Of a stretch of 22,033 bases of DNA, positions 7,748-19,362 are shown piece after piece. The DNA is from a virus (Duplodnaviria; Heunggongvirae; Uroviricota; Caudoviricetes). The position numbers were made by a program, and so were the translations under genes. The stretch is taken from the IMG/VR virus record IMGVR_UViG_3300034126_000013. One strand, given 5' to 3'. The notes under the pieces are model-generated. The model was not told the origin of the DNA and did not search any database. It worked only from the letters and a program-made list of their open reading frames with translations. Each line of letters begins with the position of its first letter. The stretch's first letter is position 1.

Positions 7748-8042
7748 GCGTATAGTCGATTGTCCAGTAGTAAACCCTCACGATGTGAGGAAACATTACG
7801 GACTTCTGTTCTGGCAGCAGTGCTGGTTTTGTGAAATGGAGTTTCGGCGTGAAGCCGGGTATAAATGGCTCTTCGGAGGACGTACATGGTGTTACTCGTG
7901 CAGCGATTGCTCCGCATCAATCAGTCATTGTAACGACAATCTGAGTTGGCGTAATGCAACAGCAGTGGCAAAGATGAAAGCGCTACCACCACCAATGCGT
8001 ACATTCAGTAATGCACGTCGTCAACCATTATGGACCGACTAA
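7740..8042 (+). CDS. putative zinc-binding hypothetical protein
   Basis: CWFC...CSDC motifs. Confidence 0.75.
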   Translation: MVKRIVDCPVVNPHDVRKHYGLLFWQQCWFCEMEFRREAGYKWLFGGRTWCYSCSDCSASISHCNDNLSWRNATAVAKMKALPPPMRTFSNARRQPLWTD

Positions 8043-8043
8043 T

Positions 8044-8157
8044 ATGAGCATGGAAATAGAAGCACTACTAATCACACTCGGTGTATTTGGACCATTCATT
8101 GTGGTAGGTGTATTCGTTGGAGTATGCCTACTCACATCAAACCCTTGGAGACGATAA
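8044..8157 (+). CDS. small single-pass membrane protein (37 aa)
   Basis: MSMEIEALLITLGVFGPFIVVGVFVGVCLLTSNPWRR; fills the gap and is coupled to the next ATG. Confidence 0.7.
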   Translation: MSMEIEALLITLGVFGPFIVVGVFVGVCLLTSNPWRR

Positions 8158-8324
8158 TGAATATTCGTAAACTAATTAACCAACTTGAAGAAATAGCAGA
8201 ACTCGCAGGTGACGATCAAATCGTATATACTTGGTGTCCTGACGGTGAGGACTGGTTCCCGATCACAGGATTCACATACGGTGGTGGAGATAATATCATT
8301 CAGATTTACAATGATGAGGGCTAA
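8157..8324 (+). CDS. hypothetical protein
   Basis: SD GGAG and TAATG coupling (MNIRKL...). Confidence 0.75.
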   Translation: MNIRKLINQLEEIAELAGDDQIVYTWCPDGEDWFPITGFTYGGGDNIIQIYNDEG

Positions 8325-8619
8325 GCAAGTTTTATACCTGATGAGCAATCCCTTCAAGCTCTTCAAAATAGGTATATCAAAGAATCCAATTAAGCGTTGT
8401 AGACAAATAGAACTTGCATCCGGCTCACCAGTTGCCATAATAAAGTGCTGGCAGACGCTGGATGCACCTGCTTTCGAAGTGGAACAGTACCTACATCGTC
8501 TATTTGCACGCAAAAGAAAACAGGGAGAATGGTTTGACAACATCACCATCTCCGATATAGAATATGCAGGTTACGACTTAACCGAATGTAATCATAATGG
8601 AACACTCAGGAGAAAATAA
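8311..8619 (+). CDS. GIY-YIG family protein (T5orf172/MUG113-like)
   Basis: VLYLM...FKIGISKNPIKR...E..LH..F...R.QGEWF pattern. Confidence 0.85.
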   Translation: MMRAKQVLYLMSNPFKLFKIGISKNPIKRCRQIELASGSPVAIIKCWQTLDAPAFEVEQYLHRLFARKRKQGEWFDNITISDIEYAGYDLTECNHNGTLRRK

Positions 8620-8810
8620 TGAAATGGTATGAAATTATTATTGATGGTGGTGATGGCTCTTCCTCTGTTCATCGGTATAGAACAATCGAAGAAGCTAATG
8701 AAGCAATCCAAATCGAATTCGAAGCCTACGGAATGGAACCAGAAGGCCCAAACCTTGTAGATACAGATTCCCCTGACTTCTTTGATACAGTGAGCGACTA
8801 CAATGACTGA
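8619..8810 (+). CDS. acidic hypothetical protein
   Basis: 63 aa; TAATG coupling. Confidence 0.75.
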   Translation: MKWYEIIIDGGDGSSSVHRYRTIEEANEAIQIEFEAYGMEPEGPNLVDTDSPDFFDTVSDYND

Positions 8811-9039
8811 ATATACAATCAAGTATGAATACGAATATATTGACCACGAATGTCCATGCTGTGCTTATAGTGATAAAACAATCACCATCTATGAGAACAA
8901 CCGTACAGACGGGGTTTACACTTCGTCATTCGATACATTTCTGATCGCAGAAGATGAAAATGTATTACGTGAATTCATCAACGACTACTACCCTGAATAT
9001 AACGACTTCAGCGTACACGAAGACACAAGGTGGTTCTAA
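8803..9039 (+). CDS. hypothetical protein
   Basis: 78 aa with a CPCC motif; overlaps its neighbours. Confidence 0.75.
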   Translation: MTEYTIKYEYEYIDHECPCCAYSDKTITIYENNRTDGVYTSSFDTFLIAEDENVLREFINDYYPEYNDFSVHEDTRWF

Positions 9040-9350
9040 TGTTTGAGCAACCCGGCGTAGCCAACATCCGTGAACGTAAAGCAGCTAACGAAGCAAGACA
9101 AAGACGTGAGCGAGAAGGTGATAACTCACCACCACGAAAAGGTACGATTGATCATTTGGTTTGGGTAGCTCGTCAAAATACAACACCCGAAGATAAAGCT
9201 AGAAGAGTGCAAGCACAGTTGGATTTCAATAAAAGAATGCGTGAGTATGAAGCTGATCGAGTGAAAAGAAATACTTGCGGTGATTGTGGTGCTGACACAC
9301 TAAACTACAGCCATTCATTTAAATGCCGTTGGAGAGGGAGTGGGTTCTAA
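9039..9350 (+). CDS. hypothetical protein with a C-terminal CxxC
   Basis: Coupled start at 9039 (MFEQPG...). Confidence 0.75.
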   Translation: MFEQPGVANIRERKAANEARQRREREGDNSPPRKGTIDHLVWVARQNTTPEDKARRVQAQLDFNKRMREYEADRVKRNTCGDCGADTLNYSHSFKCRWRGSGF

Positions 9351-9598
9351 TGAGTAACAAACAATGTCCATGCTGTCTGCGTAAACGTGTAGGTCCAATC
9401 AAAACATGGCGACGTAACACTCAATACGTAGAAGACTCAATCAACTACATGACAACATGCGTACACTGCATCATGGAAGACGATATCAACTACGCATACG
9501 ATTGGGCAGACTACTACAACGGTACAGGCGTAGGTGGCTACTCACATTACACCGACTTCCTAATCAATCGACGCTGGCCTTGGAGAACACTGAAATGA
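9350..9598 (+). CDS. putative zinc-binding hypothetical protein
   Basis: CPCC...CVHC; SD GAGGGAG and TAATG coupling. Confidence 0.75.
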   Translation: MSNKQCPCCLRKRVGPIKTWRRNTQYVEDSINYMTTCVHCIMEDDINYAYDWADYYNGTGVGGYSHYTDFLINRRWPWRTLK

Positions 9599-9750
9599 TC
9601 AAGCTAATCGCATTCCTATTCACAGGGTGCTGGCATAAGTGGGAACTATCTAGCAAACATACACTACTCAGTGACGGTCAATCACGTGGAATGACTTACA
9701 TCTCAAGATGCTCAAAATGCGGTAAACATAAAAGAGAAGACTTAAAATGA
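9595..9750 (+). CDS. small hypothetical protein
   Basis: MIKLIAFLFTGCWHKW...CSKCG; ATGA overlaps. Confidence 0.7.
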   Translation: MIKLIAFLFTGCWHKWELSSKHTLLSDGQSRGMTYISRCSKCGKHKREDLK

Positions 9751-9974
9751 CAGACGTACAACGATTCAGACAGAGTGGATACGACAACAGTCTACTACCA
9801 TCATCAAACGATGGTGATGCACACTACATGTACTACAAAGATCATGCTGTCATCGTCTCATTACTGCGTGAACAACTCGACAGCAAAGATGCACAGATAC
9901 AGACAGCAAACGAACAAAATGAAAGACTACTTCGTGTAATCGATAGAATGCTTGAGGAGATGAGAAGTCGATGA
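9747..9974 (+). CDS. hypothetical protein with a coiled coil
   Basis: 75 aa; heptad-like C-terminal half. Confidence 0.75.
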   Translation: MTDVQRFRQSGYDNSLLPSSNDGDAHYMYYKDHAVIVSLLREQLDSKDAQIQTANEQNERLLRVIDRMLEEMRSR

Positions 9975-10522
9975 GTAAATTAATTTACGCTGTTGGTGTT
10001 AATGATGCAGATTATAAAGTATCTACCAAAATTAGTGGGAAAACTATAAAGTGTGAATATTATTCGAGATGGCATGCTATGTTGACGAGATGTTATGGTT
10101 CTACATATCCTACTTATATTGGATGTTCTGTTGATCCTCGCTGGTACTCATTTATGTCTTTCAAAGCTTGGATGGAGAAACAAGACTGGAACGATAAATT
10201 TTTAGATAAGGATATTTTGTTCACTTCGAACAAAATATATGGTCCCGACACATGTGTGTTTGTCAGTAGAGAAGTTAATCTGTTCATTACCGACAGTAAT
10301 AAGTCAAGGGGTGTGTGGCCAGTTGGTGTACGTTTACACAGAGATGGTAAGTTTGAGGCACAAATTAGTGCCAACAACAGAAGAACATATCTTGGTTTAT
10401 TTGATACACCAGAAGCGGCATATCAAGCTTGGTACAAACGTAAACGTGAGCTAGCAATCGAACTAGCAGCACAACAAACTGATCCACGTGTAGCAGCAGC
10501 ATTAATCGCACGATTCCCATAA
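9971..10522 (+). CDS. HNH-type homing endonuclease with a C-terminal AP2 DNA-binding domain
   Basis: W..ML.RCY, LDKDIL...NK.Y.P.TCVFV and the AP2 signature YLGLFDTPEAAYQAW. Confidence 0.88.
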   Translation: MSKLIYAVGVNDADYKVSTKISGKTIKCEYYSRWHAMLTRCYGSTYPTYIGCSVDPRWYSFMSFKAWMEKQDWNDKFLDKDILFTSNKIYGPDTCVFVSREVNLFITDSNKSRGVWPVGVRLHRDGKFEAQISANNRRTYLGLFDTPEAAYQAWYKRKRELAIELAAQQTDPRVAAALIARFP

Positions 10523-10566
10523 CCTTCTTCGGAAGGTACAGCCTCGCTAACGCGGGGCTTCTTTTT
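10522..10566 (+). terminator. double-hairpin Rho-independent terminator ending the + strand operon
   Basis: ACCTTC-TTCG-GAAGGT (UUCG loop), then AGCCTCGC-TAAC-GCGGGGCT followed by TCTTTTT. Confidence 0.85.
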
Positions 10567-10743
10567 GCCCCAAATTCCATTCCCCCTATTTTTGACTTCC
10601 CCATTTACAACCCTTCCCCAAATCCTACTCCCCGATAATCCCTACTCGTTTAACAGGATATTCATCTAGTGGGTTTAACCGCCCGGACCCCCACCAGTAT
10701 ACCACCCGTCCAACAATCCACAAATCCGTGGACAAATATATCA

Positions 10744-10762
10744 GACCATGATAATCAACCTA
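10744..10762. promoter_or_regulatory. Fur box-like site
   Basis: GACCATGATAATCAACCTA, 13/19 to GATAATGATAATCATTATC. Confidence 0.35.
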
Positions 10763-10766
10763 CCCA

Positions 10767-10779
10767 AATCAAAACCTTG
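10767..10779 (+). promoter_or_regulatory. IHF consensus match
   Basis: AATCAA-AACC-TTG fits WATCAA-N4-TTR. Confidence 0.35.
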
Positions 10780-10807
10780 ACAAAATAGGTCGTATATGCA
10801 TATGTAG

Positions 10808-10826
10808 CGTAATGATAATCATTCAA
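10808..10826. promoter_or_regulatory. Fur box-like site
   Basis: CGTAATGATAATCATTCAA, 14 contiguous matches to the Fur 19-mer. Confidence 0.55.
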
Positions 10827-10906
10827 TGGCGTTTAACATAATACTGATTATACGCAAGGCACATACCCCTCCCGTGTAATCGTCGTATAGCTGTAATGTA
10901 GGGGAT

Positions 10907-10954
10907 TCGGTGATTGACCATCAAACGTCCGCATTGCACGAACTCTTCACCAAT
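10907..10954 (-). ncRNA. candidate small RNA / 5' hairpin motif, copy C
   Basis: Starts after promoter 10960-10988; UUGGUGA...GUCAAUCACCGA closes a 7-bp helix. Confidence 0.35.
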
Positions 10955-10959
10955 GACAC

Positions 10960-10988
10960 ATATTACCACCTTCGGGGCGGAATGACTA
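10960..10988 (-). promoter_or_regulatory. sigma70-type promoter
   Basis: TAGTCA-N17-TAATAT with an extended -10 TG. Confidence 0.5.
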
Positions 10989-11023
10989 GCTTTTTCTCTT
11001 TCTTTCCTCGGATTGCCCTATGT

Positions 11024-11042
11024 GAGAATGATAATCGTTTAT
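11024..11042. promoter_or_regulatory. Fur box-like site
   Basis: GAGAATGATAATCGTTTAT, 14/19 to the Fur consensus. Confidence 0.5.
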
Positions 11043-11059
11043 TAAATAAACAGTGTAAT

Positions 11060-11075
11060 TGTTCCATGTGGAACA
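11060..11075. promoter_or_regulatory. parS: parS-like site 1 (ParB-binding palindrome)
   Basis: TGTTCCATGTGGAACA, 15/16 to TGTTCCACGTGGAACA. Confidence 0.75.
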
Positions 11076-11392
11076 CATGAATAGATATAATTAGAGAGGG
11101 ATGCTTAACCCATCTGTCGATGTGTACGCCTATCCCTCGAATAGCCTATATGTGAATATGTCAGTATTATGTCGTAATGACGACATGCAATGATGTACTA
11201 GAATGGCTGAAAGCCATTGATTATAAGGCTTTTAGAGAAGCGTTATATTATGGGCCTAGCCCATGGTAGGGATGGTTTATTGCGTAGCAATGAGGGGTAC
11301 TGTAGGAGCTTAGGGAGGGTATGCTACCGCATACAAGAGGGATAACAGAGGGTTATTACCCTGATACTAACCTGTTTACTAAGTCTGTTAAC

Positions 11393-11412
11393 TACTGTTG
11401 TATACAACAGAA
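11393..11412. promoter_or_regulatory. LexA (SOS) box-like palindrome
   Basis: TA-CTGT-TGTATACA-ACAG-AA: a perfect 16-bp palindrome of the CTGT-N8-ACAG form. Confidence 0.55.
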
Positions 11413-11509
11413 TATATATACTTCTTTAAGAGGGGAGGGGTTCCCCTCTCTCTCCCTCTCTCTATGCTCTCTAATAGCTCACTGGGGGAGTTCCCCCAGA
11501 AGATAAGGC

Positions 11510-11539
11510 ATTATACCCCTTGACATGCGGTTCTGTCTA
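11510..11539 (-). promoter_or_regulatory. sigma70-type promoter firing into the non-coding region
   Basis: TAGACA-N18-TATAAT, followed by the hairpin CTGGGGGA/TCCCCCAG (11481-11499). Confidence 0.6.
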
Positions 11540-11558
11540 TGCTGGTCTGGGACACATA

Positions 11559-11625
11559 CGTACACAATAGCGACACTATGTCAAGCGTTTATATTCATAG
11601 GACAGAAACGTACATAAATGCGACA
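11559..11625. repeat. two copies of the 17-bp motif YGTAYAYAWWWGCGACA
   Basis: 11559-11575 CGTACACAATAGCGACA and 11609-11625 CGTACATAAATGCGACA. Confidence 0.7.
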
Positions 11626-11630
11626 CATAC

Positions 11631-11655
11631 AAAGAAACCCCTACAGAGAGGGGTT
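11631..11655 (-). terminator. Rho-independent terminator of the early operon
   Basis: AACCCCT-N6-AGGGGTT stem with a U-rich tail on the minus strand. Confidence 0.8.
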
Positions 11656-11673
11656 ATTATTGGAAGGGGTTTG

Positions 11674-11925
11674 TTATTCACCTAAACCTAAAGCGTTACG
11701 TTCTTCAACAGTGAGTTTGGCAAGGGCTTGTTTCTTGAGTTCACCAGACTTTAAGAATTCATATTCTTCTTTACTTTCATGAATAATAAATGTTCGTTTA
11801 TATACTGCACCGTGTTGACCGGCGATGGCTTTAGCGTCGTCTTTGTCCACAACGTAACATTCGTGATAGTGACGGTCGCCGCCGTCCCATAACTGCACGT
11901 CGTAGCATTCGATAATTTTAGTCAT
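11674..11925 (-). CDS. early hypothetical protein
   Basis: 83 aa; SD AAGGTG; C-terminus ALAKLTVEERNALGL. Confidence 0.85.
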   Translation of the reverse strand: MTKIIECYDVQLWDGGDRHYHECYVVDKDDAKAIAGQHGAVYKRTFIIHESKEEYEFLKSGELKKQALAKLTVEERNALGLGE

Positions 11926-11928
11926 GAT

Positions 11929-12057
11929 TTACACCTTGTTAGGAATGAGTTTAGTTCCGCAATGACCGCACCATGCAAAGCCTTGGGCTACAACTGGTTT
12001 ATGTTTGCTTGTCTTACCATGCAAGGCACCACAATTAGAACATGGTTTGTATTTCAT
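11929..12057 (-). CDS. small zinc-ribbon protein (42 aa)
   Basis: MKYKPCSNC...WCGHCGTKLIPNKV; ATGA-coupled to the upstream gene. Confidence 0.75.
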   Translation of the reverse strand: MKYKPCSNCGALHGKTSKHKPVVAQGFAWCGHCGTKLIPNKV

Positions 12058-12269
12058 TTTGTCACCTTCCGGCTACGTTTACCGGTCATTGCACGGCATT
12101 GATAATCGCACAGTTTAAAGATGCGTTTCCATTTGGCGGATACATGACCGTCTTTCAAATTACGAACCTTGCGGCCTTTCGGGAAGTCGGTACAAGCTTG
12201 TTTAGTGCAATGCACCATGATTTCTTTAGTAACAGTATTCATGATGTTATTGACATAAGAAGTTTTCAT
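12054..12269 (-). CDS. basic early hypothetical protein
   Basis: 71 aa; SD AAGGTG; directly downstream of promoter 12320-12348. Confidence 0.8.
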   Translation of the reverse strand: MKTSYVNNIMNTVTKEIMVHCTKQACTDFPKGRKVRNLKDGHVSAKWKRIFKLCDYQCRAMTGKRSRKVTK

Positions 12270-12319
12270 GGTGTCACCTTTTAGACAACTGGGGAGACAT
12301 TCCCCGTTTCGTTAAAGCG

Positions 12320-12348
12320 ATTGTACCGACTAATCAACATCGGTACAA
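12320..12348 (-). promoter_or_regulatory. sigma70-type promoter embedded in a 9-bp inverted repeat
   Basis: TTGTAC-N17-TACAAT; arms TTGTACCGA (12321-29) and TCGGTACAA (12340-48). Confidence 0.65.
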
Positions 12349-12366
12349 GAAGTATTTTAGTTTATT

Positions 12367-12630
12367 TCAAAGCCCTACCAGATTACCAAGGAAGCGCCGG
12401 GTTTCTACAGTTGCAACGATAGGACCGTTGACAACTTCCACCACAGCGTGGTCAGTCCACTCTGGGTTCCAAGGTTGAATGACGCGCTTTTCAGCAGCTT
12501 CCTTGGTTTTGAACATCCCCGAGATAACCAGTTTACCTTCGTACATGCTGACCACTACGTGGGTGATGTCAGTCTTTGCTGTTTTCTTGCTTACCGATTG
12601 ACCGTTGTGTTGAACAGTAAGAGTTTTCAT
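12367..12630 (-). CDS. early hypothetical protein
   Basis: MKTLTVQH..., 87 aa; SD AGGA; start trimmed from the track's 12702. Confidence 0.8.
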   Translation of the reverse strand: MKTLTVQHNGQSVSKKTAKTDITHVVVSMYEGKLVISGMFKTKEAAEKRVIQPWNPEWTDHAVVEVVNGPIVATVETRRFLGNLVGL

Positions 12631-12670
12631 TTCGGTAATTCCTGTTTGGTTGTTTGCTTTCGATGTGTTC

Positions 12671-12699
12671 ATTCTACTAAGGAATCTAGTCTGTGTATA
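12671..12699 (-). promoter_or_regulatory. sigma70-type promoter
   Basis: TATACA-N17-TAGAAT, ~35 nt upstream of the 12630 start. Confidence 0.5.
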
Positions 12700-12898
12700 C
12701 ATTTATTTTTAGTTTATTATGAAAATAGTTCTAAATAGTTCGGATGCTCTATAAGCTCCTATAAGCCGTTTTGGGGAGTGCTAACGATTACCCTTAATGC
12801 TGATATGTCTTTGTTCTTAAAACAGCGTACCAAGATGCGTGCCAACATTAGACAATGCTTCGGGAAAATAACGTGCCAATACTTTATTGCAGGGTCGG

Positions 12899-12926
12899 TC
12901 GGTGATTGCCTCCGATCCTCACCGGT
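12899..12926 (-). ncRNA. candidate small RNA / 5' hairpin motif, copy A (3' end unknown)
   Basis: CGGUGA-GGAUCGGAGGCAA-UCACCGA directly after promoter 12933-12962; no credible ORF before the next promoter. Confidence 0.4.
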
Positions 12927-12932
12927 AGTTGT

Positions 12933-12962
12933 ATTGTAGCAAAGAATTTAGAACGATGTCTA
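12933..12962 (-). promoter_or_regulatory. sigma70-type promoter
   Basis: TAGACA-N18-TACAAT. Confidence 0.6.
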
Positions 12963-12977
12963 CATTTATTTACAGAC

Positions 12978-13006
12978 AAAAGAAAGCCCCCAATTAAGGA
13001 GGCTTT
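12978..13006 (-). terminator. Rho-independent terminator
   Basis: AAAGCC...GGCTTT stem with a U-tract on the minus strand. Confidence 0.75.
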
Positions 13007-13019
13007 ATTGTGGGTTGGC

Positions 13020-13238
13020 TTATGATTCAATGATCTTGACAGAGAAGCCAGCTAGAACATACTTACCAATCATTTGCTCGACTTCGCGTTGCTCATACAG
13101 ACTATCTATTTGCAGGTCAATCTTTTTCGTTTCTTCGTCTACTAACCAGACGCTACCAGCATAGCCCGCCCCGCCTGCAATGTTAACCACTTGCACTTCG
13201 TTTGTGTGGTTGATGTTGCCGATAATTAGAGTTTTCAT
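13020..13238 (-). CDS. early hypothetical protein
   Basis: MKTLIIGN...; start uncertain (13238, 13286 or 13295). Confidence 0.75.
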   Translation of the reverse strand: MKTLIIGNINHTNEVQVVNIAGGAGYAGSVWLVDEETKKIDLQIDSLYEQREVEQMIGKYVLAGFSVKIIES

Positions 13239-13288
13239 GGGTGGCCCTAGATCAATGATGTTAGAGATTATACCGGTCTGGTTCATGG

Positions 13289-13546
13289 TCAGCAATCACA
13301 TTCGTCGTCTTCTTTGAATTGGCTTACGAATTCATTAACTCGTTTAGTCAAGGATTTGTGAGCCGATTCTACATCTTTCAAACGATCTTGATAATACTCA
13401 AGAGCTTTTATAAATGCTTCCCGTTCGGTCTTGGCACGCATAGCCAGATTCATACCACGTGTTTCATCATAGAGCCAGAAGCCGTCTGTGCACTCGCTTA
13501 ATGCAAGCTTACTGGTCAATACTTCGTGTTTAATTACCTTACCCAT
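13289..13546 (-). CDS. early hypothetical protein
   Basis: MGKVIKHE..., 85 aa; SD AGAGG before 13546. Confidence 0.8.
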   Translation of the reverse strand: MGKVIKHEVLTSKLALSECTDGFWLYDETRGMNLAMRAKTEREAFIKALEYYQDRLKDVESAHKSLTKRVNEFVSQFKEDDECDC

Positions 13547-13550
13547 GATA

Positions 13551-13727
13551 TTAAACCTCTTTATCATCAATGATTTGAATTTGGGAAATGATACCAAATT
13601 GCCCTTGAGACAACAACTCAATGTGTTGTTTGATTAGCTCGACTTGCTCAATGTCTAAGCAGTCTTCGTGCTTACCAGCGAACAACGCAATCTTTAAAGC
13701 TTGGATCAATTCTTGATTGTATTGCAT
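13551..13727 (-). CDS. early hypothetical protein
   Basis: MQYNQELIQALK..., 58 aa; SD AAGGTG. Confidence 0.75.
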   Translation of the reverse strand: MQYNQELIQALKIALFAGKHEDCLDIEQVELIKQHIELLSQGQFGIISQIQIIDDKEV

Positions 13728-13728
13728 G

Positions 13729-13902
13729 TTACACCTTTTCATTATGTTCTAGACGACGACCATTTTGGACGGTTACGCGTTTACCCGCAAGCGAAATAAA
13801 CGACATAGCTTCACCTTCAAACGCGTTCATTGCCTTGTAATACGTTTCAGAGAATTGATCGTCTAACTGTTTACGTAGCTTGCGAAGTTGAAAGCGGTTC
13901 AT
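13729..13902 (-). CDS. early hypothetical protein (57 aa; not in the track)
   Basis: MNRFQLRKLRKQLDDQFSE...HNEKV; SD AAGGGG. Confidence 0.75.
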   Translation of the reverse strand: MNRFQLRKLRKQLDDQFSETYYKAMNAFEGEAMSFISLAGKRVTVQNGRRLEHNEKV

Positions 13903-13914
13903 GTCGTTAACCCC

Positions 13915-14223
13915 TTACAAGCAAAATTTGTATTTATCAGAAATTGAATCAAACTCAGGATCGATATCGCATTCGTCTTCATCGATGATAATGGCTTCAA
14001 CGAAGTATTCCCATTCAGGACCGAAGCGAGACGATATTTGGTTATCCGTGTTGAAAGCGCGAATATCAGTAACATCATCTGCATCCAGTTCACCGCATAC
14101 ACGTTCAATGTAATCAGCAACATCGATTTGAGCAACTTCTACACGACCGCATTCAACAAACCAAGCATTGTGACCGATTACAAAGTCAGTACCAGTTTTA
14201 ACGATTTTGATTTCTACGATCAT
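13915..14223 (-). CDS. acidic early hypothetical protein
   Basis: MIVEIKIV..., 102 aa; downstream of promoter 14273-14300. Confidence 0.8.
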   Translation of the reverse strand: MIVEIKIVKTGTDFVIGHNAWFVECGRVEVAQIDVADYIERVCGELDADDVTDIRAFNTDNQISSRFGPEWEYFVEAIIIDEDECDIDPEFDSISDKYKFCL

Positions 14224-14272
14224 GATAAGTGCCTTTACAAAAGTGGTTGGCTGAATGCCTTTCATGTGGTCC

Positions 14273-14300
14273 ATTCTACACTCTTTAGACAACAGGTCAA
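14273..14300 (-). promoter_or_regulatory. early promoter (16-bp spacer class, TCTAAA in spacer)
   Basis: TTGACC-TGTTGTCTAAAGAGTG-TAGAAT. Confidence 0.8.
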
Positions 14301-14309
14301 GCTTTAAAA

Positions 14310-14348
14310 CGTATATATTTGCGACATTGAATGTATATAAATGCGACA
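14310..14348. repeat. two copies of the 17-bp motif YGTAYAYAWWWGCGACA, 22 bp apart
   Basis: 14310-14326 CGTATATATTTGCGACA and 14332-14348 TGTATATAAATGCGACA. Confidence 0.7.
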
Positions 14349-14353
14349 TAGAG

Positions 14354-14374
14354 AAAAGCCCCGACTAGCGGGGC
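14354..14374 (-). terminator. Rho-independent terminator
   Basis: GCCCCG-ACTAG-CGGGGC with AAAA on the + strand (U-tract on minus). Confidence 0.8.
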
Positions 14375-14379
14375 GATTG

Positions 14380-14395
14380 TGTTTCACGTGGAACA
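14380..14395. promoter_or_regulatory. parS: parS-like site 2
   Basis: TGTTTCACGTGGAACA, 15/16 to both TGTTTCACGTGAAACA and TGTTCCACGTGGAACA. Confidence 0.85.
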
Positions 14396-14396
14396 T

Positions 14397-14699
14397 TTAC
14401 TTATCATGATGCCAGTCAATAATAGTTTTGACATGCTGTTCTGTTGTAAAGGTGTAATCAGTAAATACCTGAGTACCACACAAGCCGAATGCATACCAGT
14501 TTGATAGACGACCTTTCATGATTTCAATCTGTCGATAAACCGATATCGATTTGACTAATTCTGCACCGTTGTCTGTAACCCATTTATCAAGCTTTGCCAA
14601 TGTAGGGAATTTGTCGGGAACTTGATTCCCTTTCTGTTCACCAGTGAGAAAGCGTAGCTTATGAAAGTCGCCGTATTTCTCACGCTTTACCAGACTCAC
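14397..14699 (-). CDS. early hypothetical protein
   Basis: 100 aa; coupled to the upstream ORF. Confidence 0.8.
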   Translation of the reverse strand: MSLVKREKYGDFHKLRFLTGEQKGNQVPDKFPTLAKLDKWVTDNGAELVKSISVYRQIEIMKGRLSNWYAFGLCGTQVFTDYTFTTEQHVKTIIDWHHDK

Positions 14700-14887
14700 A
14701 AGCTTGATTCCTTTTTCATTGTGTCGATTAGCTTTGTTACATGATCCGCATATACATAACCCGGCGTTGGTTCAACAAGGGTTTTCAATCGTTCATGTGC
14801 AGCGGTTAAACGCGTTGGTGTGTCGTGTCCTGCATCATACATCATCCGCAATGCAAAGCGTTGGGATACTGCGATTTTATCAGCCAT
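14696..14887 (-). CDS. early hypothetical protein
   Basis: 63 aa; SD AAGGTG. Confidence 0.8.
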   Translation of the reverse strand: MADKIAVSQRFALRMMYDAGHDTPTRLTAAHERLKTLVEPTPGYVYADHVTKLIDTMKKESSL

Positions 14888-14896
14888 GATACACCT

Positions 14897-14971
14897 TTAG
14901 ATAACGTTTACAACAGACCAAACCGCAATACTTACAAGTGTAGCCAATGAAGCGATAAATGCGATTTTCAT
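14897..14971 (-). CDS. 24-aa hydrophobic peptide
   Basis: MKIAFIASLATLVSIAVWSVVNVI; SD GAGG; first gene after promoter 15002-15029. Confidence 0.65.
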   Translation of the reverse strand: MKIAFIASLATLVSIAVWSVVNVI

Positions 14972-15001
14972 GATGTAGCCTCGATTTGTTTGGTGTTGTC
15001 C

Positions 15002-15029
15002 ATTCTACAGGAATAAACCATATGGTCAA
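15002..15029 (-). promoter_or_regulatory. early promoter (16-bp spacer class)
   Basis: TTGACC-N16-TAGAAT. Confidence 0.8.
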
Positions 15030-15211
15030 GACATTATTTTAACTATTTCGTTATTCAAAGCAAGTAAAAGCTCGGATGAGCAATAGATGCTAATTGGTGC
15101 AAGAACAAGGTATTGCCATGTGCGTGTTACAATACCATAAACGATAGCAAGGATTCCAGAACTGAATAGAATATAGAGAACGAAAGTACAAAGACTAATA
15201 AGTGACATCAT
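15026..15211 (-). CDS. small membrane protein (two hydrophobic segments)
   Basis: 61 aa, strongly hydrophobic. Confidence 0.75.
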   Translation of the reverse strand: MMSLISLCTFVLYILFSSGILAIVYGIVTRTWQYLVLAPISIYCSSELLLALNNEIVKIMS

Positions 15212-15260
15212 GATGTAAAACCTGATTTTAGTAATGGGTTATTTGCCTTTCTTGTCACTC

Positions 15261-15288
15261 ATTCTACAGACTTTAAAGAGTAGGTCAA
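15261..15288 (-). promoter_or_regulatory. early promoter (16-bp spacer class)
   Basis: TTGACC-N16-TAGAAT; TTTAAA variant at the TCTAAA position. Confidence 0.8.
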
Positions 15289-15321
15289 CAAGTATTTTCA
15301 TTTATTGTTGGCATGATCTTT

Positions 15322-15394
15322 GATGCGAAGGTTTCGTATTACCAGATAGTCAGGCTCCTTCGGTGATTGTCTCGTGTCTGACTTCGCACCGTGT
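15322..15394 (-). ncRNA. candidate structured small RNA, copy B
   Basis: Starts after the TAGAAT at 15401-06. It has CGGUG/CACCG, GGUGCGAAG/CUUCGCAUC and AGUCAG/CUGACU pairings and no evident ORF. Confidence 0.4.
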
Positions 15395-15405
15395 AAAACT
15401 ATTCT

Positions 15406-15449
15406 ACAGGAAGCGTAAAGGTTCCACGTGGAACCTTTACGCTTCCTGT
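15406..15449. repeat. perfect 44-bp palindrome
   Basis: ACAGGAAGCGTAAAGGTTCCAC|GTGGAACCTTTACGCTTCCTGT. Confidence 0.95.
15420..15435. promoter_or_regulatory. parS: parS-like site 3
   Basis: GGTTCCACGTGGAACC; central 14 bp identical to TGTTCCACGTGGAACA. Confidence 0.8.
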
Positions 15450-15763
15450 TTAGCCAGTTCAATAGCTTTGTCGAATGCTTCCATTACTTCGGCGTGTGTG
15501 TGCTCATCATTATATCGTGCAAACGTTGTTGGACCATGATTTACAACCTTAGACAAAAGCTTTTCTGCCTCGTTATTAGTCCAGTCAAGTTCGAAAGATT
15601 CTATATCGAAATTAATTTCAGGTTTCATTGCTTTACTAATTGCACCCAATGAGCAGAAGCATTCCCGACCATCAACCACCTTTTTATAGTACTTGCCTTG
15701 TATCCAATTCGAAGGATCGGCAATAAGTGCTTTTGCTTGGATCAATACGTCTACAGTTTTCAT
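15437..15763 (-). CDS. conserved phage protein, DUF6197-like
   Basis: W.QG...CSLGAI...YND.HTHAEV..AFDKAI pattern, recognised from memory. Confidence 0.65.
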   Translation of the reverse strand: MKTVDVLIQAKALIADPSNWIQGKYYKKVVDGRECFCSLGAISKAMKPEINFDIESFELDWTNNEAEKLLSKVVNHGPTTFARYNDEHTHAEVMEAFDKAIELAKQEA

Positions 15764-15772
15764 GTTATACCC

Positions 15773-15949
15773 TTATACAGTGACTTCTGAAAGGCGACGA
15801 ACTTCGACAACTGGACATTCTGGGAACTGGCTTGCGGCCATGAAAAAGGCAGTTGACTTATTAGCCACGTTGTAAGTAATAGCAAATGTAAACTGTTCAC
15901 CTTCAAAGGTGTCAGTCATTGCAACACGGAACTTATATTTCTTTGACAT
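15773..15949 (-). CDS. early hypothetical protein (58 aa)
   Basis: MSKKYKFRVAMTDTF...; SD AAGGA. Confidence 0.75.
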   Translation of the reverse strand: MSKKYKFRVAMTDTFEGEQFTFAITYNVANKSTAFFMAASQFPECPVVEVRRLSEVTV

Positions 15950-15959
15950 TTATATATCC

Positions 15960-16112
15960 TTAGATCAATTCATTTTGTGCAATGTGCACACCAGTAGCAA
16001 CAGTAAAAGCAATCAACGCTAATTTAGCGAAAAAGTCAAACTTGCTTCTAGTTCCATCAAGAAAGATTGTAAGTACAACCATAATAATTAAAAGTTCAAT
16101 CGAGGTAATCAT
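15960..16112 (-). CDS. small membrane protein (50 aa, two hydrophobic segments)
   Basis: MITSIELLIIMVVLTIFL...LALIAFTVATGVHIA...; ATGA-coupled. Confidence 0.7.
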   Translation of the reverse strand: MITSIELLIIMVVLTIFLDGTRSKFDFFAKLALIAFTVATGVHIAQNELI

Positions 16113-16261
16113 TTAACTTGCCTTGTTAGTTTGGCTTTAGTTAGATCGTTCGGGTTCATCATATCAAGTTGAACAACCCAGACGGAACTACCTGCAAAGT
16201 TCTTGATAAACACGATACCTTCATGTTTGCCGATCTTACCATGTAATCGCATCACGTTCAT
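16109..16261 (-). CDS. early hypothetical protein (~50 aa)
   Basis: MNVMRLHGKIGKHEGIVF...; start uncertain. Confidence 0.65.
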   Translation of the reverse strand: MNVMRLHGKIGKHEGIVFIKNFAGSSVWVVQLDMMNPNDLTKAKLTRQVK

Positions 16262-16281
16262 AACTAAGTCAAACTCTTTAA

Positions 16282-16545
16282 CTAATTGAGGTTTGTAGTA
16301 TAATGCTGTTTTATCGCCTTTGCAACAACTTTCGTTATATCTTTTGAACTATCACCATAGACAGTAAATCGTTTGTCTATGTATTGCAGCCGCATAATAT
16401 TGCGACCGTTTCGGTCTTGGATATAACAACGATTACCATGGCCATTCATCAAGTGACCTTGACCAGTTCCTGCTAACTTCATTGCAAGTTGAATTTTAGC
16501 AATCATTGTAGGGTGTGTCAAGCTAGTTACAGTAATCATTTTCAC
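16282..16545 (-). CDS. basic early hypothetical protein
   Basis: 87 aa; SD AAGGAG. Confidence 0.8.
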   Translation of the reverse strand: MKMITVTSLTHPTMIAKIQLAMKLAGTGQGHLMNGHGNRCYIQDRNGRNIMRLQYIDKRFTVYGDSSKDITKVVAKAIKQHYTTNLN

Positions 16546-16649
16546 TCCTTATCTTTATAAATTGAATACAATACCGTAACAATTAAGGAAAATGACATAA
16601 ATACCACAGGTATTAAACATGCAATAATTATTTTATGTTCATATGTCAT
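16542..16649 (-). CDS. 35-aa single-pass membrane peptide
   Basis: MTYEHKIIIACLIPVVFMSFSLIVTVLYSIYKDKE. Confidence 0.65.
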   Translation of the reverse strand: MTYEHKIIIACLIPVVFMSFSLIVTVLYSIYKDKE

Positions 16650-16657
16650 TTTACAAC

Positions 16658-16762
16658 TCACATTACTGGTGGTTTTGGGAAGTGATGCATTACTGTAACC
16701 ATTACAATCAATACATCGATTGCAACGATAAACCATAATGTTCTTTTCAGTTCATCATCCAT
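16658..16762 (-). CDS. 34-aa single-pass membrane peptide
   Basis: MDDELKRTLWFIVAIDVLIVMVTVMHHFPKPPVM; SD AAGGA. Confidence 0.65.
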   Translation of the reverse strand: MDDELKRTLWFIVAIDVLIVMVTVMHHFPKPPVM

Positions 16763-16811
16763 TTTTATTATTCCTTATCAGGAGAGAACCATTTCTCTCC
16801 TCTTGATACCC

Positions 16812-16839
16812 ATTCTACATCCTTTAGATAACCCGTCAA
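16812..16839 (-). promoter_or_regulatory. early promoter (16-bp spacer class, TCTAAA) with a 5' hairpin at 16780-16801
   Basis: TTGACG-GGTTATCTAAAGGATG-TAGAAT. Confidence 0.8.
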
Positions 16840-16846
16840 CAACTAT

Positions 16847-17098
16847 TTACGGGATATCTTGTTCTTTGATTTCCTTTGTTTCCATTTCAATCGAAACGAT
16901 TTCGAAAACAGTTTCACCGATTTGGAACTCAGTCAACCATTTTGTTAGCTTCGTTTCATCTTCCCACAAGGCAAGAAAACGATCATCTTGCTTTTGAGTG
17001 TTGACGTTTGCGTCTTGTACAGTTGACGCCCTGTCAATAACATATTCATTGCAAGTGGCCATTGTGCAAACGAGTGCGACGGTTGCGAAGATTGACAT
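16847..17098 (-). CDS. hypothetical protein with a hydrophobic N-terminus (possibly exported)
   Basis: MSIFATVALVCTMATC...; SD AGAGG. Confidence 0.75.
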   Translation of the reverse strand: MSIFATVALVCTMATCNEYVIDRASTVQDANVNTQKQDDRFLALWEDETKLTKWLTEFQIGETVFEIVSIEMETKEIKEQDIP

Positions 17099-17158
17099 GA
17101 TAAACCTCTTTAGAATTGATTGTCTTCTACTGACTCAGCCCCAATTAAGGGGCTTTTA

Positions 17159-17383
17159 TCACTTGTGTGATTCTACAGGAACGAAACCCATATCGCAAAG
17201 TAAACTGTATGTTTCTTGCATCAACTGAGATTGCTCATGTTCACCGAATGCTCGCCAGAATGCCCAACCTACACAATCAGCAAAAGAGTCAAATGCAAAC
17301 TGAATATCCACTTGACGACGAAACTCAATTGCAGCAGCTTCCATAATATCAGCGAGTTTTGTAGCAATTTCAATGTTCAACAT
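17159..17383 (-). CDS. early hypothetical protein
   Basis: 74 aa; SD AGAGG. Confidence 0.8.
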   Translation of the reverse strand: MLNIEIATKLADIMEAAAIEFRRQVDIQFAFDSFADCVGWAFWRAFGEHEQSQLMQETYSLLCDMGFVPVESHK

Positions 17384-17424
17384 GGTGAACCTCTTTAGAT
17401 AACTTGTTTTGTTTCGACGGGGTT

Positions 17425-17453
17425 ATAGTCTCATTTGGCTAACCCCGTGTCAA
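17425..17453 (-). promoter_or_regulatory. sigma70-type promoter overlapped by a 9-bp inverted repeat
   Basis: TTGACA-N17-GACTAT; arms ACGGGGTTA (17417-25) and TAACCCCGT (17440-48). Confidence 0.55.
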
Positions 17454-17462
17454 CACCTATTT

Positions 17463-17714
17463 TCACAATTCCGGCTTAAACTTGCAAAGGATATGGGGCG
17501 GGGCAATGAACTGCAAAGCGTATGCCTGTGCGTCTTGTATGTCACGAAAGGGTTTGAACTCCCAATCAACCCCAACGCCGCCTGAATGCGTAGAAACCTC
17601 AAAGTGGCAACCCTTGAACACTGGTTCCTCACTTTCGTAAATACGTGCTACGCGATCATACGGAACCTTGTAAGCCAAATATGTAGCAGTGTATATAGCT
17701 ATTCGACGGGACAT
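17463..17714 (-). CDS. early hypothetical protein
   Basis: 83 aa; SD GAGGTG. Confidence 0.8.
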   Translation of the reverse strand: MSRRIAIYTATYLAYKVPYDRVARIYESEEPVFKGCHFEVSTHSGGVGVDWEFKPFRDIQDAQAYALQFIAPPHILCKFKPEL

Positions 17715-17716
17715 GA

Positions 17717-17935
17717 TTACACCTCAGACTTGACAGAAAGAGAATTAAACCAGTGGGCATATGCACGCTTGCCCATCTTACGCTCTAGCGCTTCGTTCAT
17801 TGCATCGAATAGAACCGAAGGCCATTTAGGTTCGTTCCAGTCGTCTATGATTGCAGCCTGTAGACCGTCTACAGACATAAGCATAGCATGATTGCGAAGT
17901 GCGTTTACATGTTTCTTGTATTCACGAGTGTCCAT
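17717..17935 (-). CDS. early hypothetical protein
   Basis: 72 aa; downstream of promoter 18003-18030. Confidence 0.8.
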   Translation of the reverse strand: MDTREYKKHVNALRNHAMLMSVDGLQAAIIDDWNEPKWPSVLFDAMNEALERKMGKRAYAHWFNSLSVKSEV

Positions 17936-18002
17936 TTTGCATACCTATCTTGTTAAAGATTATTTGGCAGCTACTGCGAACTTTCTGCTGTCTACATGGT
18001 GA

Positions 18003-18030
18003 ATCTTAGCACGTCTGTTTGGCTTGTCAA
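18003..18030 (-). promoter_or_regulatory. early promoter (16-bp spacer class)
   Basis: TTGACA-N16-TAAGAT. Confidence 0.75.
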
Positions 18031-18329
18031 GCGTTTATTTTCAGATTCGGCCAGTCTTTACAATATCGTTTTTTGTACAGGCGTGGTGGTCTACCAATAC
18101 CACAACCGTCGTCAACTGTACCGACTCGACTGGTAAGCTTGCCCAGTGTTTCGAGCCTAATCATCTCATTGCTAACAGCCTTTGTAATTTCGACATCCGC
18201 TAAGCTCGCATGAGCTTGTTTCAGGTCGTTTACAATTGAAGGTACACACATTTCAAGTGTACCAGCTTGAGCAACCCACAAGGCCACACACTGTCTTACA
18301 AATGGAGTTTCGTTGTTCTGACTAGCCAT
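18027..18329 (-). CDS. putative winged-helix DNA-binding protein
   Basis: Helical core followed by GCGIGRPPRLY, resembling a GRP..Y wing; SD AAGGA. Confidence 0.5.
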   Translation of the reverse strand: MASQNNETPFVRQCVALWVAQAGTLEMCVPSIVNDLKQAHASLADVEITKAVSNEMIRLETLGKLTSRVGTVDDGCGIGRPPRLYKKRYCKDWPNLKINA

Positions 18330-18334
18330 TACGT

Positions 18335-18427
18335 TTAATCCTTGGAACACATACGACAAAACAAGCCGGGGCGATTACTAAACAAGGCACCGCAAGACAT
18401 ACACGTTTTACGTTTGAGAATAGCCAC
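18335..18427 (-). CDS. 30-aa zinc-ribbon peptide (GTG start)
   Basis: (M)AILKRKTCMSCGALFSNRPGLFCRMCSKD; SD AAGGTG; its stop overlaps the next SD. Confidence 0.6.
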   Translation of the reverse strand: MAILKRKTCMSCGALFSNRPGLFCRMCSKD

Positions 18428-18436
18428 ATGTCACCT

Positions 18437-18682
18437 TTAATCGTAAAAATCATCATTCATTGATATAGGGAATGGATCAAAATAATCATCTTCATAATTA
18501 TAACGATCATCTTCGTAAAACCAGTCGTCAGGTTCTTCTATTTTATTGAAGTCTTCCCAGTCTACACCATGACCATCCCACTCCCTATGTTCACGGTCTA
18601 ACTCATCTGATTCTAGCTCAGACTGTAACGTGTGTTCTTCATTGAATTCAGCGTCAATGTAACTACGATCAACTTTCGCCAT
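18437..18682 (-). CDS. highly acidic protein (30 D/E in 81 aa)
   Basis: Counted 17 D + 13 E versus 6 K/R; aromatic-rich C-terminus. Confidence 0.8.
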   Translation of the reverse strand: MAKVDRSYIDAEFNEEHTLQSELESDELDREHREWDGHGVDWEDFNKIEEPDDWFYEDDRYNYEDDYFDPFPISMNDDFYD

Positions 18683-18716
18683 GATATCAACTCGGTTTGT
18701 TTACAGATGGTTTACT

Positions 18717-18740
18717 AAAAGCGCCCATTCTAGAGCGCTT
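18717..18740 (-). terminator. probable Rho-independent terminator
   Basis: AAGCGC-N10-GCGCTT with a U-tract on the minus strand. Confidence 0.6.
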
Positions 18741-18754
18741 CTATAAATCAACTG

Positions 18755-19159
18755 TTATTCGTCGTCTTTGCACTCGTCATTAAATGCTTGACATGTACCA
18801 CAGATACCATCCTCGTTTAGTTCTTCAAAAGTACCACCGCAATCGGAGCATTCATTTTCCTCATCGTCAAGGTCGTCAATAAAGTCGATATCGCTATCAT
18901 CTTCGTTTTCCAGTTGACTTTCCAATTCAGATTGAATACTGCTTTCATGATCCCCTTTGCCACAACGGAAAGCAGTAGGGTCAGCATCTTGTAACAATGA
19001 ACCAGAACCGAAGGTCATACCACACACTTGTACATCACCGTAAATCTCGTCAAGAAAATCAACATACTCGCTATCAGAGATTGACACTTCACCATTTTCA
19101 ACATCGTGACCACGAAAGGATTTAACGTTGTCGATGTTCCAGAATTCTGCTGCTTTCAT
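18755..19159 (-). CDS. highly acidic protein with a C-terminal Cys4 motif (40 D/E in 134 aa)
   Basis: CSDC...CGTC; 6 K/R; SD AGGA. Confidence 0.85.
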   Translation of the reverse strand: MKAAEFWNIDNVKSFRGHDVENGEVSISDSEYVDFLDEIYGDVQVCGMTFGSGSLLQDADPTAFRCGKGDHESSIQSELESQLENEDDSDIDFIDDLDDEENECSDCGGTFEELNEDGICGTCQAFNDECKDDE

Positions 19160-19193
19160 GTTCGTATTCCTGATTAGATAAGTAATGTTGCTG

Positions 19194-19221: not shown

Positions 19222-19224
19222 GCT

Positions 19225-19314: not shown

Positions 19315-19362
19315 GATCTTTCTCTAGGTTGTGGGAGAGAAAATCTCTCCCTTGTGTGACTG

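Follow-up and report, generated by a model that had tools for sequence, protein, structure and literature searches.

Palindromes matching the host chromosomal parS site in the early region of a virulent-type Pseudomonas phage: candidate loading sites for host ParB

Introduction

Three copies of a palindrome resembling the chromosomal parS site lie clustered within 4.4 kb, an occurrence far above chance, in a 22,033 nt stretch of tailed virus DNA (IMG/VR record IMGVR_UViG_3300034126_000013; hereafter, the window). Judged from its relatives, the virus is probably a virulent-type Pseudomonas phage with a genome of about 100 kb. What would such a phage do with the centromere of a bacterial chromosome? 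The reading favored here, with a probability of roughly 0.7, is that the palindromes serve as functional sites at which the ParB protein of the host chromosome loads, that is, orphan centromeres in a phage lacking its own partition genes.

Results and Discussion

Three parS-like palindromes

An earlier note on this DNA, made from the sequence letters, had reported palindromes at positions 11060–11075 (TGTTCCATGTGGAACA, site 1), 14380–14395 (TGTTTCACGTGGAACA, site 2) and 15420–15435 (GGTTCCACGTGGAACC, site 3), and these sequences were found at exactly those coordinates; none has a strand assigned. They share the 16-bp palindrome of chromosomal-type parS, with site 2 matching the consensus TGTTNCACGTGNAACA at 16/16 positions, site 1 at 15/16 (a central C-to-T change, giving a CATGTG variant) and site 3 at 14/16, both outer bases being different and the 14-bp core perfect. 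With up to two mismatches allowed, there are five matches in the window against 0.17 expected, and none of 100 shuffles reached five. The two additional two-mismatch matches (1235 and 10480) are both within genes and are probably due to chance. Perfect 14-bp cores are also in excess (two against 0.0006 expected, P = 2e-7), and the same is true of three relatives, G001 (3 versus 0.003), ventosus (4 versus 0.003) and KoPa-4 (3 versus 0.002), with P values from 2e-7 to 2e-12 across the window and these genomes.

In P. aeruginosa, ChIP-seq of ParB identified parS as TGTTCCACGTGGAACM, with four copies in 6.3 Mb and none more at one mismatch, while sites with two mismatches were not bound in vivo (PMC5098823). 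Each of the window sites departs from TGTTCCACGTGGAACM at one position (position 8 in site 1, 5 in site 2 and 1 in site 3), this consensus being that of P. aeruginosa, which may not be the host of the phage. On the chromosome, ParB nucleates at a small cluster of parS sites lying no more than a few kb apart and from there spreads over more than 20 kb (PMC5098823). The phage sites have the same 16-bp palindrome as the Pseudomonas chromosomal ParABS system, but they are not near an oriC and no parAB operon lies alongside them.

Distribution and conservation among related phages

The recurrence in related phages that the earlier note had proposed to look for was found across diverged genomes: parS sites are carried by 12 of 16 related phages of 93–107 kb, at 1–6 sites each. 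The closest complete relative, G001 (a syntenic 104-kb IMG/VR contig, CheckV 100%), carries in the same early region three perfect 16-bp parS sites, all within 3.9 kb. Many exact copies of the P. aeruginosa site TGTTCCACGTGGAACM occur in the relatives, and the hosts given in the GenBank records of two phages with perfect sites are P. putida KT2440 (KoPa-4) and P. aeruginosa (XD2). The four related phages without sites are VCM, Kremar, phiK7A1 and Bobbio; three of them infect Pseudomonas syringae, and the trait is thus dispensable. Bobbio, a Dickeya phage, is of no use as a host control, as its entire genus is without sites. No parS sites were found in seven unrelated phages, or in 163 kb of metagenome loci encoding a homologue of ORF 13289–13621. 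A tree of core proteins indicates that the parS trait is old: both of the deep clades contain carriers, with the four non-carriers nested among these.

Conservation of individual sites is uneven. The orthologue of site 2 in G001 (22285–22300) is identical at 16/16 positions, while the flanks are 59% identical. The flanks of site 1 can be aligned with the two nearest relatives (G001 and phiPto-bp6g), but no parS is present at the orthologous position there, a point against the favored reading. For sites kept in both of the relatives compared, identity is 94% over the 16-mer and 57% over the 40-nt flanks, a comparison biased by the choice of pairs. The form seen at site 1 recurs elsewhere: all three sites of phiPMW are its CATGTG/CACATG variant. 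In vB_PpS_SYP, a perfect parS is arranged in the way of site 1, beside the same AAACGAT(A/T)ATCATTCTCA box.

Such turnover between relatives, the decay of site 1 in two of them and the ability of four related phages to manage without sites would fit sequences that bind host ParB but bring the phage no benefit, whether they are neutral leftovers from the capture of host DNA or palindromes that arose by chance and are tolerated because they lie in spacers. This is very improbable. By chance, only about 1e-3 sites per genome would be expected, and carriage extends to both deep clades, with most carriers holding 3–6 sites per genome despite the turnover. Host-like sequence is not seen in the flanks, and the gaps that are used differ by lineage, which indicates that the sites arose or moved repeatedly.

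Genomic context and placement

The sites lie outside coding sequence, as the earlier note had stated, in the gaps between small early genes of the minus strand. Site 1 is within a 1.1 kb non-coding junction (10560–11650, no strand assigned) between convergent plus-strand and minus-strand gene blocks, with terminators at its edges (10540–10559, plus strand; 11636–11655, minus strand), and is overlapped by just one unconvincing ORF of 56 aa. Sites 2 and 3 are between minus-strand genes. The note had also placed them 1 nt after a TAA stop, and this is true, but the stops belong to the minus-strand ORFs 14397–14699 and 15437–15763. The former (100 aa) has no match in Pfam, PHROG or by tblastn against phages, and the latter (108 aa) encodes a DUF6197 protein (phrog_762).

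Directly after site 2, on the minus strand, is a rho-independent terminator (14358–14374) with the G+C-rich hairpin and T-run of this class (six G-C pairs and a loop of 5, then TTTTCT). Site 3 is the center of a perfect 44-bp palindrome (15406–15449, no strand assigned; 22 + 22 nt, 100% complementary, no spacer), the right arm of which includes the final codons and stop of ORF 15437–15763. As minus-strand RNA this palindrome is predicted to form a 20-bp stem (centroid −36.8 kcal/mol), and the 96-nt stretch that holds it has a minimum free energy of −41.7 (z = −8.1). As a possible terminator, the palindrome has a very stable stem, but the first T-run (TTTT) begins about 9 nt past it. Adjoining the palindrome is a minus-strand −10-like hexamer, TAGAAT (15401–15406), read from the sequence, which has no TTGACN −35 box; parS site 3 occupies the −35 position. 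The TGTAGAAT motif at this hexamer is common to a repeated promoter family (repeat D3), an example of which is the promoter-like TTGACC-16-TAGAAT on the minus strand at 14273–14300 (repeat families D1–D3 and D6), with further copies at 15261–15288 and 15002–15029.

A similar placement is seen across the carriers. In annotated genomes, which are about 90% coding, 14 of 16 sites are intergenic. Nearly half of all sites (16/35) begin within 3 nt of a stop codon, compared with about 5% of random intergenic positions, and a terminator follows about 14 of the 35; other sites are upstream of start codons or within long non-coding junctions.

Positions between stop codon and terminator, together with the strong stem of which site 3 forms the tip, could be taken to mean that the conserved element is a 3′ untranslated RNA hairpin that stabilizes or processes early transcripts, its likeness to parS being incidental. 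There is little to commend this explanation when the sites upstream of start codons or in long junctions are considered, and the element matches no Rfam family. Asymmetric variants are mostly GTTCCACGTGAAAC in the direction of transcription, an orientation that produces a C-A mismatch in the transcript, and so the RNA hairpin is not what is conserved. Only two positions vary, the same ones that vary among bacterial parS sites; compensatory changes in the stem are not seen, conservation includes the outer T and A, which do not pair, and a 5-bp stem would have no need of 16/16 identity to a host centromere. We consider it about as improbable as neutral retention.

Search for phage-encoded partners

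Phages such as P1 (parABS) and N15 (sopAB), which carry centromeres, are temperate plasmid prophages with their own ParA/ParB or SopA/SopB proteins and centromeres that differ from that of the host. The phages studied here resemble them in having centromere sites on their genomes, but no partition genes or integrase were found in the genomes tested and the site is that of the host. The earlier note had seen no parA or parB in the window, and none was detected at the Pfam level among the 30 ORFs scanned (83–437 aa); absence of a phage ParB was thus assessed directly for these ORFs of the 22-kb window and from relatives for the rest of the genome. The N-terminal domain of ParB (ParB_N) was not found in any of 16 complete genomes, TIGR00180 was not found in G001, and HTH_ParB was not found in five carrier genomes. 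Neither ParA families (AAA_31, CbiA) nor a tyrosine integrase were found in ten carrier genomes. A self-contained parABS cassette, with its own parA and parB, was likewise not found in G001, in the carrier relatives tested or among the window ORFs scanned. When the genes of 13 genomes were clustered, no real cluster tracked the carriage of sites. The only cluster present in 7/9 carriers and in no non-carriers was rejected: it has no Pfam or PHROG match, G001 and 254 lack it, and it resembles an antisense ORF.

The sites might instead be operators for a phage DNA-binding protein that shares the specificity of ParB, or for a ParB-fold protein too diverged to detect. The place of site 3 at the would-be −35 box of the TAGAAT promoter agrees with this, as do the sites of several relatives that are just upstream of a ribosome-binding site, and most early proteins have no known function. 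A gene of the DndB family, a member of the ParB-fold superfamily, is flanked by parS sites in four relatives. A DndB-like gene is, however, absent from eight site carriers (G001, the window, phiPto-bp6g, XD2, Bitten, 254, Y1-MI and phiPMW) and present in VCM and Kremar, both of which are free of sites. The failure to find ParB_N or HTH_ParB in the genomes tested, or a gene cluster that follows carriage, also speaks against operators, and identity to the host centromere at every one of 16 positions, in lineages so diverged, is more than an operator would require. This explanation is unlikely, albeit less so than an RNA element or neutral retention.

Host-type parS sites in a phage and most of its relatives, with no partition genes found in those tested, mean that the phage most likely borrows the ParB of its host. 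The recruitment of host ParB proposed in the earlier note has thereby gained a motif used in vivo by Pseudomonas, recurrence across deep branches, intergenic placement and the lack of a phage ParB, ParA or co-occurring gene; binding by ParB, and all that would follow from it, is predicted from sequence.

Proposed mechanism and comparison with known systems

If host ParB is borrowed, then following entry of the phage DNA, ParB-CTP dimers of the host would nucleate on the palindromes; once closed into clamps, they would spread across both the early region and the non-coding junction. The resulting partition-type complex could engage host ParA and possibly SMC. No benefit for a fast lytic cycle is evident. 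The best guess, offered tentatively, is that the gain is in the placement or segregation of phage chromosomes on the nucleoid, which would be most important for infections that stall in slow-growing cells, as a counterpart to the Spo0J-dependent entrapment of phi29 in spores. A weaker candidate is ParB-dependent damping of nearby early promoters, suggested because site 3 sits where a −35 box would be. The titration of ParB and the loading of SMC are less likely than either. None of the purposes suggested in the earlier note, namely compaction of the phage genome, disguise from Wadjet/Mks surveillance and ParB titration, is favored by the present results.

The nearest precedent is in Bacillus. 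PMC2731898 describes five parS sites in phi29 and use of the host protein Spo0J (Meijer et al. 2005, cited therein), as well as Spo0A boxes, sites for a host regulator, near the early promoters. Four perfect parS sites were found in a phi29-like IMG/VR contig with the same motif scan. Like phi29 and Nf, the present phage combines a virulent-type genome (a lifestyle judged from relatives) with several copies of the host chromosomal parS and no ParB found. The differences are that its host is a non-sporulating Gram-negative, its genome measures about 100 kb, against 19 kb, and its lineage is unrelated; its sites lie close together in the early region, in tight gaps between stop codons and terminators. 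Given the precedent of phi29 and Spo0J, the principle itself is not new. To our knowledge, phi29 is the only phage for which use of host ParB has been demonstrated experimentally, and spore entrapment is the sole known rationale. Since Pseudomonas does not sporulate, spore entrapment cannot be the purpose here.

A broader view, which we hold with somewhat less than even confidence, is that these virulent Pseudomonas phages of about 100 kb, an old group with deep branches, have kept orphan host centromeres as a means of plugging into the ParB-ParA(-SMC) machinery, a second and independent evolution of the phi29 strategy for a different purpose. In slow-growing cells, for example, stalled genomes might in this way be stably positioned and inherited (a carrier state). 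Should host ParB load at these sites, a lytic phage would be using the chromosome segregation machinery where the spore-entrapment rationale fails, raising the question of what role ParB, ParA or SMC has for a virulent phage. The role could lie in positioning, in inheritance of a carrier state, in silencing of early genes or in sabotage of host segregation. A mode of persistence, if there is one, would be relevant to biocontrol and therapy, for which these phages are candidates.

The system is tractable, as intergenic sites can be scrambled with the genes left untouched. The dispersed centromeres of N15 are near promoters, and binding to them also affects expression. In infections by the lytic phage Bas54 engineered to carry parS, the site was bound by its cognate P1 ParB-mScarlet and foci were formed (PMC11946911). 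There, too, parS lay between genes of a lytic phage, but it was an artificial, heterologous P1 site with an expressed ParB, whereas the sites described here are natural and match the motif of the host ParB. Natural parS sites of this kind would permit phage DNA to be imaged through tagged host ParB.

parS sites in the window

The earlier note had reported three copies of parS, the 16-bp palindromic chromosomal centromere loaded by ParB, and each was found in the sequence exactly where it had been placed, so that the observation of three sites is confirmed. All 16 positions of site 2 (14380-95) agree with the universal parS consensus TGTTNCACGTGNAACA; site 1 (11060-75) departs from it by one central transition (CATGTG where the consensus has CACGTG), and in site 3 (15420-35) the 14-bp core is perfect and both outer bases are altered. 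With up to two mismatches allowed there are five matches to parS in the window against 0.17 expected, a number reached in none of 100 shuffles, and the perfect 14-bp core GTTYCACGTGRAAC occurs twice against 0.0006 expected under a first-order Markov model (P = 2e-7). The two additional 16-mers with two mismatches (1235-1250 and 10480-10495) both begin with TGATCCACGT and lie within coding sequence; they are probably due to chance, though two slightly exceeds the 0.17 expected. Counts of the half-sites GTTCCAC and GTTTCAC were without clear excess over the full sites. The ParB site determined by ChIP-seq in P. aeruginosa is TGTTCCACGTGGAACM, with four occurrences in 6.3 Mb and none further at one mismatch (PMC5098823), and the phage motif is this same site. 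Each window site differs at one position from the strict P. aeruginosa consensus.

The window appears to come from a large Pseudomonas phage, and its DNA similarity is to Pseudomonas phages of 93–107 kb and to the 26.5-kb record phiPto-bp6g. In a plus-strand block (1-10522) there are genes for a dCMP deaminase, an ATP-dependent DNA ligase, a cpYpsA protein, a metallophosphatase and homing-endonuclease-like proteins. This block is interrupted at 8209-8619 and 9971-10522 by two probable homing endonucleases; one has T5orf172/MUG113 domains, while the other matches PHROG HNH-endonuclease families and has a weak, sub-threshold Pfam AP2-domain match. On the minus strand, from 22033 down to about 11674, small ORFs follow one another in an array. 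For most of them no function is known, and terminators and a promoter family are interspersed among them, as is typical of an early region. Between the two converging blocks is a non-coding junction of 1.1 kb (10560-11650), which contains site 1. The promoter-like repeat is present in at least eight minus-strand copies (13363-20027), each consisting of TTGACC/TTGACN, 16 nt and TAGAAT, often with TG before it, and these predicted TTGACC-N16-TAGAAT promoters would drive the small early genes. Neither tRNA genes nor Rfam matches were found in the window.

Sites 2 and 3 are placed alike, the first base of each lying 1 nt past the TAA of an ORF (14397-14699 and 15437-15763, respectively, the latter a DUF6197 protein). 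A terminator (14374-14358, minus strand) follows 5 nt beyond site 2. Site 3 is the centre of a perfect, spacer-less 44-bp palindrome (15406-15449) that is predicted to fold as a 20-bp RNA stem. It adjoins a hexamer, TAGAAT, of the -10 type found in the promoter family, and parS lies where a -35 box would be expected. Besides being a candidate ParB site, this palindrome could serve for termination, as a target of RNase III or as a cruciform. The final four codons and stop of ORF 15437-15763 lie in its right arm, which recodes them.

Distribution among related phages

Megablast of the window against phages gave no match, nor did a ligase search of genome contigs for close relatives, a search of viral contigs with ORF 15437-15763, or tblastn with ORF 14397-14699; 163 kb of metagenome loci with a distant homologue of ORF 13289-13621 held no parS. 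The closest complete relative, IMGVR_UViG_3300041407_000052 (hereafter G001; 104,392 bp, CheckV 100% complete), was reached via the ligase and is syntenic with the window. It carries three perfect 16-bp parS (18406, 20214 and 22285) within the corresponding early region, and the site at 22285 is orthologous to window site 2, with 16/16 identical bases and flanks at 59%.

Perfect cores, expected by chance at about 0.002–0.003 per genome, number six in vB_PpS_SYP (SYP), four each in ventosus, XD2 and UAVern, three each in KoPa-4 and Bitten, and one in vB_PseuGesM_254; Y1-MI has one plus one CATGTG variant. Two of the SYP sites are held in its exact terminal redundancy of 351 bp, and its distinct sites may be five rather than six. 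The single parS of phiPto-bp6g has a stop codon on one side and a terminator on the other. phiPMW (KU862660.1) has no perfect core, and its three sites (15423, 20516 and 20736) all have the central CATGTG/CACATG variant seen in window site 1, a usage suggesting that such a change is either tolerated or preferred. Neither parS nor ParB comes up in the phiPMW genome paper, which discusses the Delftia phage phiW-14, whose DNA has hypermodified thymine. No parS was found in the related phages VCM, Kremar, phiK7A1 and Bobbio, or in the unrelated pf16, phiKZ, PB1, PAK_P1, LUZ19, YuA and phiW-14.

A tree of eight concatenated core proteins, with strong support on all inner branches, has carriers in both deep clades, and phiK7A1 and a Bobbio, Kremar and VCM group nested among them. 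If the tree is rooted provisionally at its midpoint, the simplest history would be old carriage of parS with two losses.

Placement and turnover of the sites

Site positions were taken from deposited annotations and stop-to-stop analysis. In annotated genomes, 14 of 16 parS are intergenic, though about 90% of each genome is coding, and across 12 phages 16 of 35 sites start no more than 3 nt from the stop codon that ends an ORF of 40 codons or longer, compared with about 5% of random intergenic positions under what is a crude null. A G+C-rich terminator hairpin follows 0–20 nt after about 14 of the 35, and others lie in a stop-to-RBS gap, just upstream of a start codon, or in a long non-coding junction. 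The 'deliberate placement' after stops proposed for the window is therefore real and general: parS is squeezed into the little unoccupied sequence that a densely packed genome leaves. By a crude, greedy gene caller, 8 of 13 sites would count as coding, an artefact of spurious long ORFs. In UAVern, the parS at 43121 immediately follows the stop codon of a gene annotated as an RNA ligase, where there is a convergent terminator, and Bitten 3311 and XD2 17314 have a similar stop-parS-terminator context.

Action of parS at the RNA level, as part of the transcript, is unlikely. Only two positions vary, and bacterial parS are variable at these too; the asymmetric variant in its commoner orientation would leave a C-A mismatch in the transcript, and many parS lie outside 3' untranslated regions.

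Individual sites turn over. Where G001 and phiPto-bp6g align with window site 1, neither has a parS, and the G001 sites at 18406 and 20214 are without a counterpart in the window, yet the number of sites per genome stays similar. In retained pairs the 16-mer is 94% identical versus 57% for the 40-nt flanks, a comparison biased by the choice of pairs.

Search for a phage-encoded binder

As the earlier note had claimed, there is no ParA or ParB among the 30 window ORFs (83–437 aa) scanned against Pfam. ParB_N was absent from all 16 genomes tested, HTH_ParB from five of five and TIGR00180 from G001, while ParA families and tyrosine integrases were both absent from the same ten carrier genomes. 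Among the genomes searched, no candidate for a phage-encoded binder of parS was found.

One gene considered for this role encodes a protein of about 485 aa of the DndB family, which we take to be a ParB-fold family. It is flanked by parS in four relatives, lying inside the parS cluster of SYP (7671-9125), ventosus (43878-45341), KoPa-4 (61574-63037) and UAVern (about 5450-6910), with a site either at the stop codon or immediately before the start. The distribution of the gene does not follow that of parS: G001, the window and phiPto-bp6g lack the gene, and the parS-free phages VCM and Kremar have it, so that it is not the parS partner. Phyletic profiling of every ORF of 50 aa or longer across 13 genomes revealed no credible gene limited to carriers. 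The only cluster present in 7/9 carriers and no non-carriers had no Pfam or PHROG match and was missing from G001 and vB_PseuGesM_254, and a second match was an antisense ORF inside the ligase gene; both were taken as spurious.

To our knowledge, Enterobacterales are without chromosomal ParABS, and Bobbio, listed on Dickeya, has no parS. This host control was rejected as evidence: since its close relatives on Pseudomonas syringae (VCM and Kremar) and the separately nested phiK7A1 are also without parS, Bobbio lacks the sites through lineage and not host. The early region of Bobbio gave no alignment with ventosus or KoPa-4.

Precedents and possible function

The Bacillus phage phi29 has five parS, and host Spo0J brings its genome into the forespore (PMC2731898). 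Engineered parS in the lytic phage Bas54 was bound by its ParB during infection (PMC11946911). A literature search turned up no report of parS in lytic Pseudomonas phages. In a 14-mer scan of IMG/VR, single matches among those listed were judged close to chance; a 16-mer scan was more useful, and its matches included multi-site contigs without ParB_N. One recovered contig, a phi29-like podovirus sequence of 12.3 kb, has four perfect parS, in keeping with the phi29 precedent; another, of 8.3 kb, has four in mirror-image spacing and could represent the same element. In a 77-kb contig (97% complete) from an unrelated phage, three parS fall within 260 bp and ParB_N is absent, which makes it a further phage lineage with host-type parS without ParB.

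The best reading of the window sites, to which we give a probability of roughly 0.7, is that they are host-ParB loading sites kept by selection. Because phi29 already uses host Spo0J at parS, the Pseudomonas phage case would be a variant of a known strategy and not a new principle. Weak points of the host-ParB reading are the one-position departure of every window site from the strict P. aeruginosa consensus, the lineage-specific site 1, the four related phages that live without sites, and the failed Bobbio control. Among possible benefits to the phage, we rank first that phage chromosomes are positioned or segregated, perhaps so as to persist in cells that grow slowly, followed by ParB-dependent damping of early promoters, then ParB titration, and lastly SMC loading. 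Loading of host ParB at these sites is open to direct tests in P. putida and P. aeruginosa.

Other conserved elements in the junction

The non-coding junction also holds two Fur-box-like sequences GAGAATGATAATCGTTTAT (10808-10826 and 11024-11042), the second 17 nt from site 1, which score 14/19 against what we take to be the Fur-box consensus. With up to five mismatches there are six matches in the window versus 1.1 in mononucleotide shuffles (maximum 6). They are kept in phiPto-bp6g, G001 (about 17650) and SYP (about 240-270), and their position near site 1 recalls the pairing of parS with Spo0A boxes in phi29. An inverted repeat, ATGTCGT..ACGACAT (11165-11187), is near-exact in the window, phiPto-bp6g and G001 while adjacent sequence diverges, and could be an operator or origin element.
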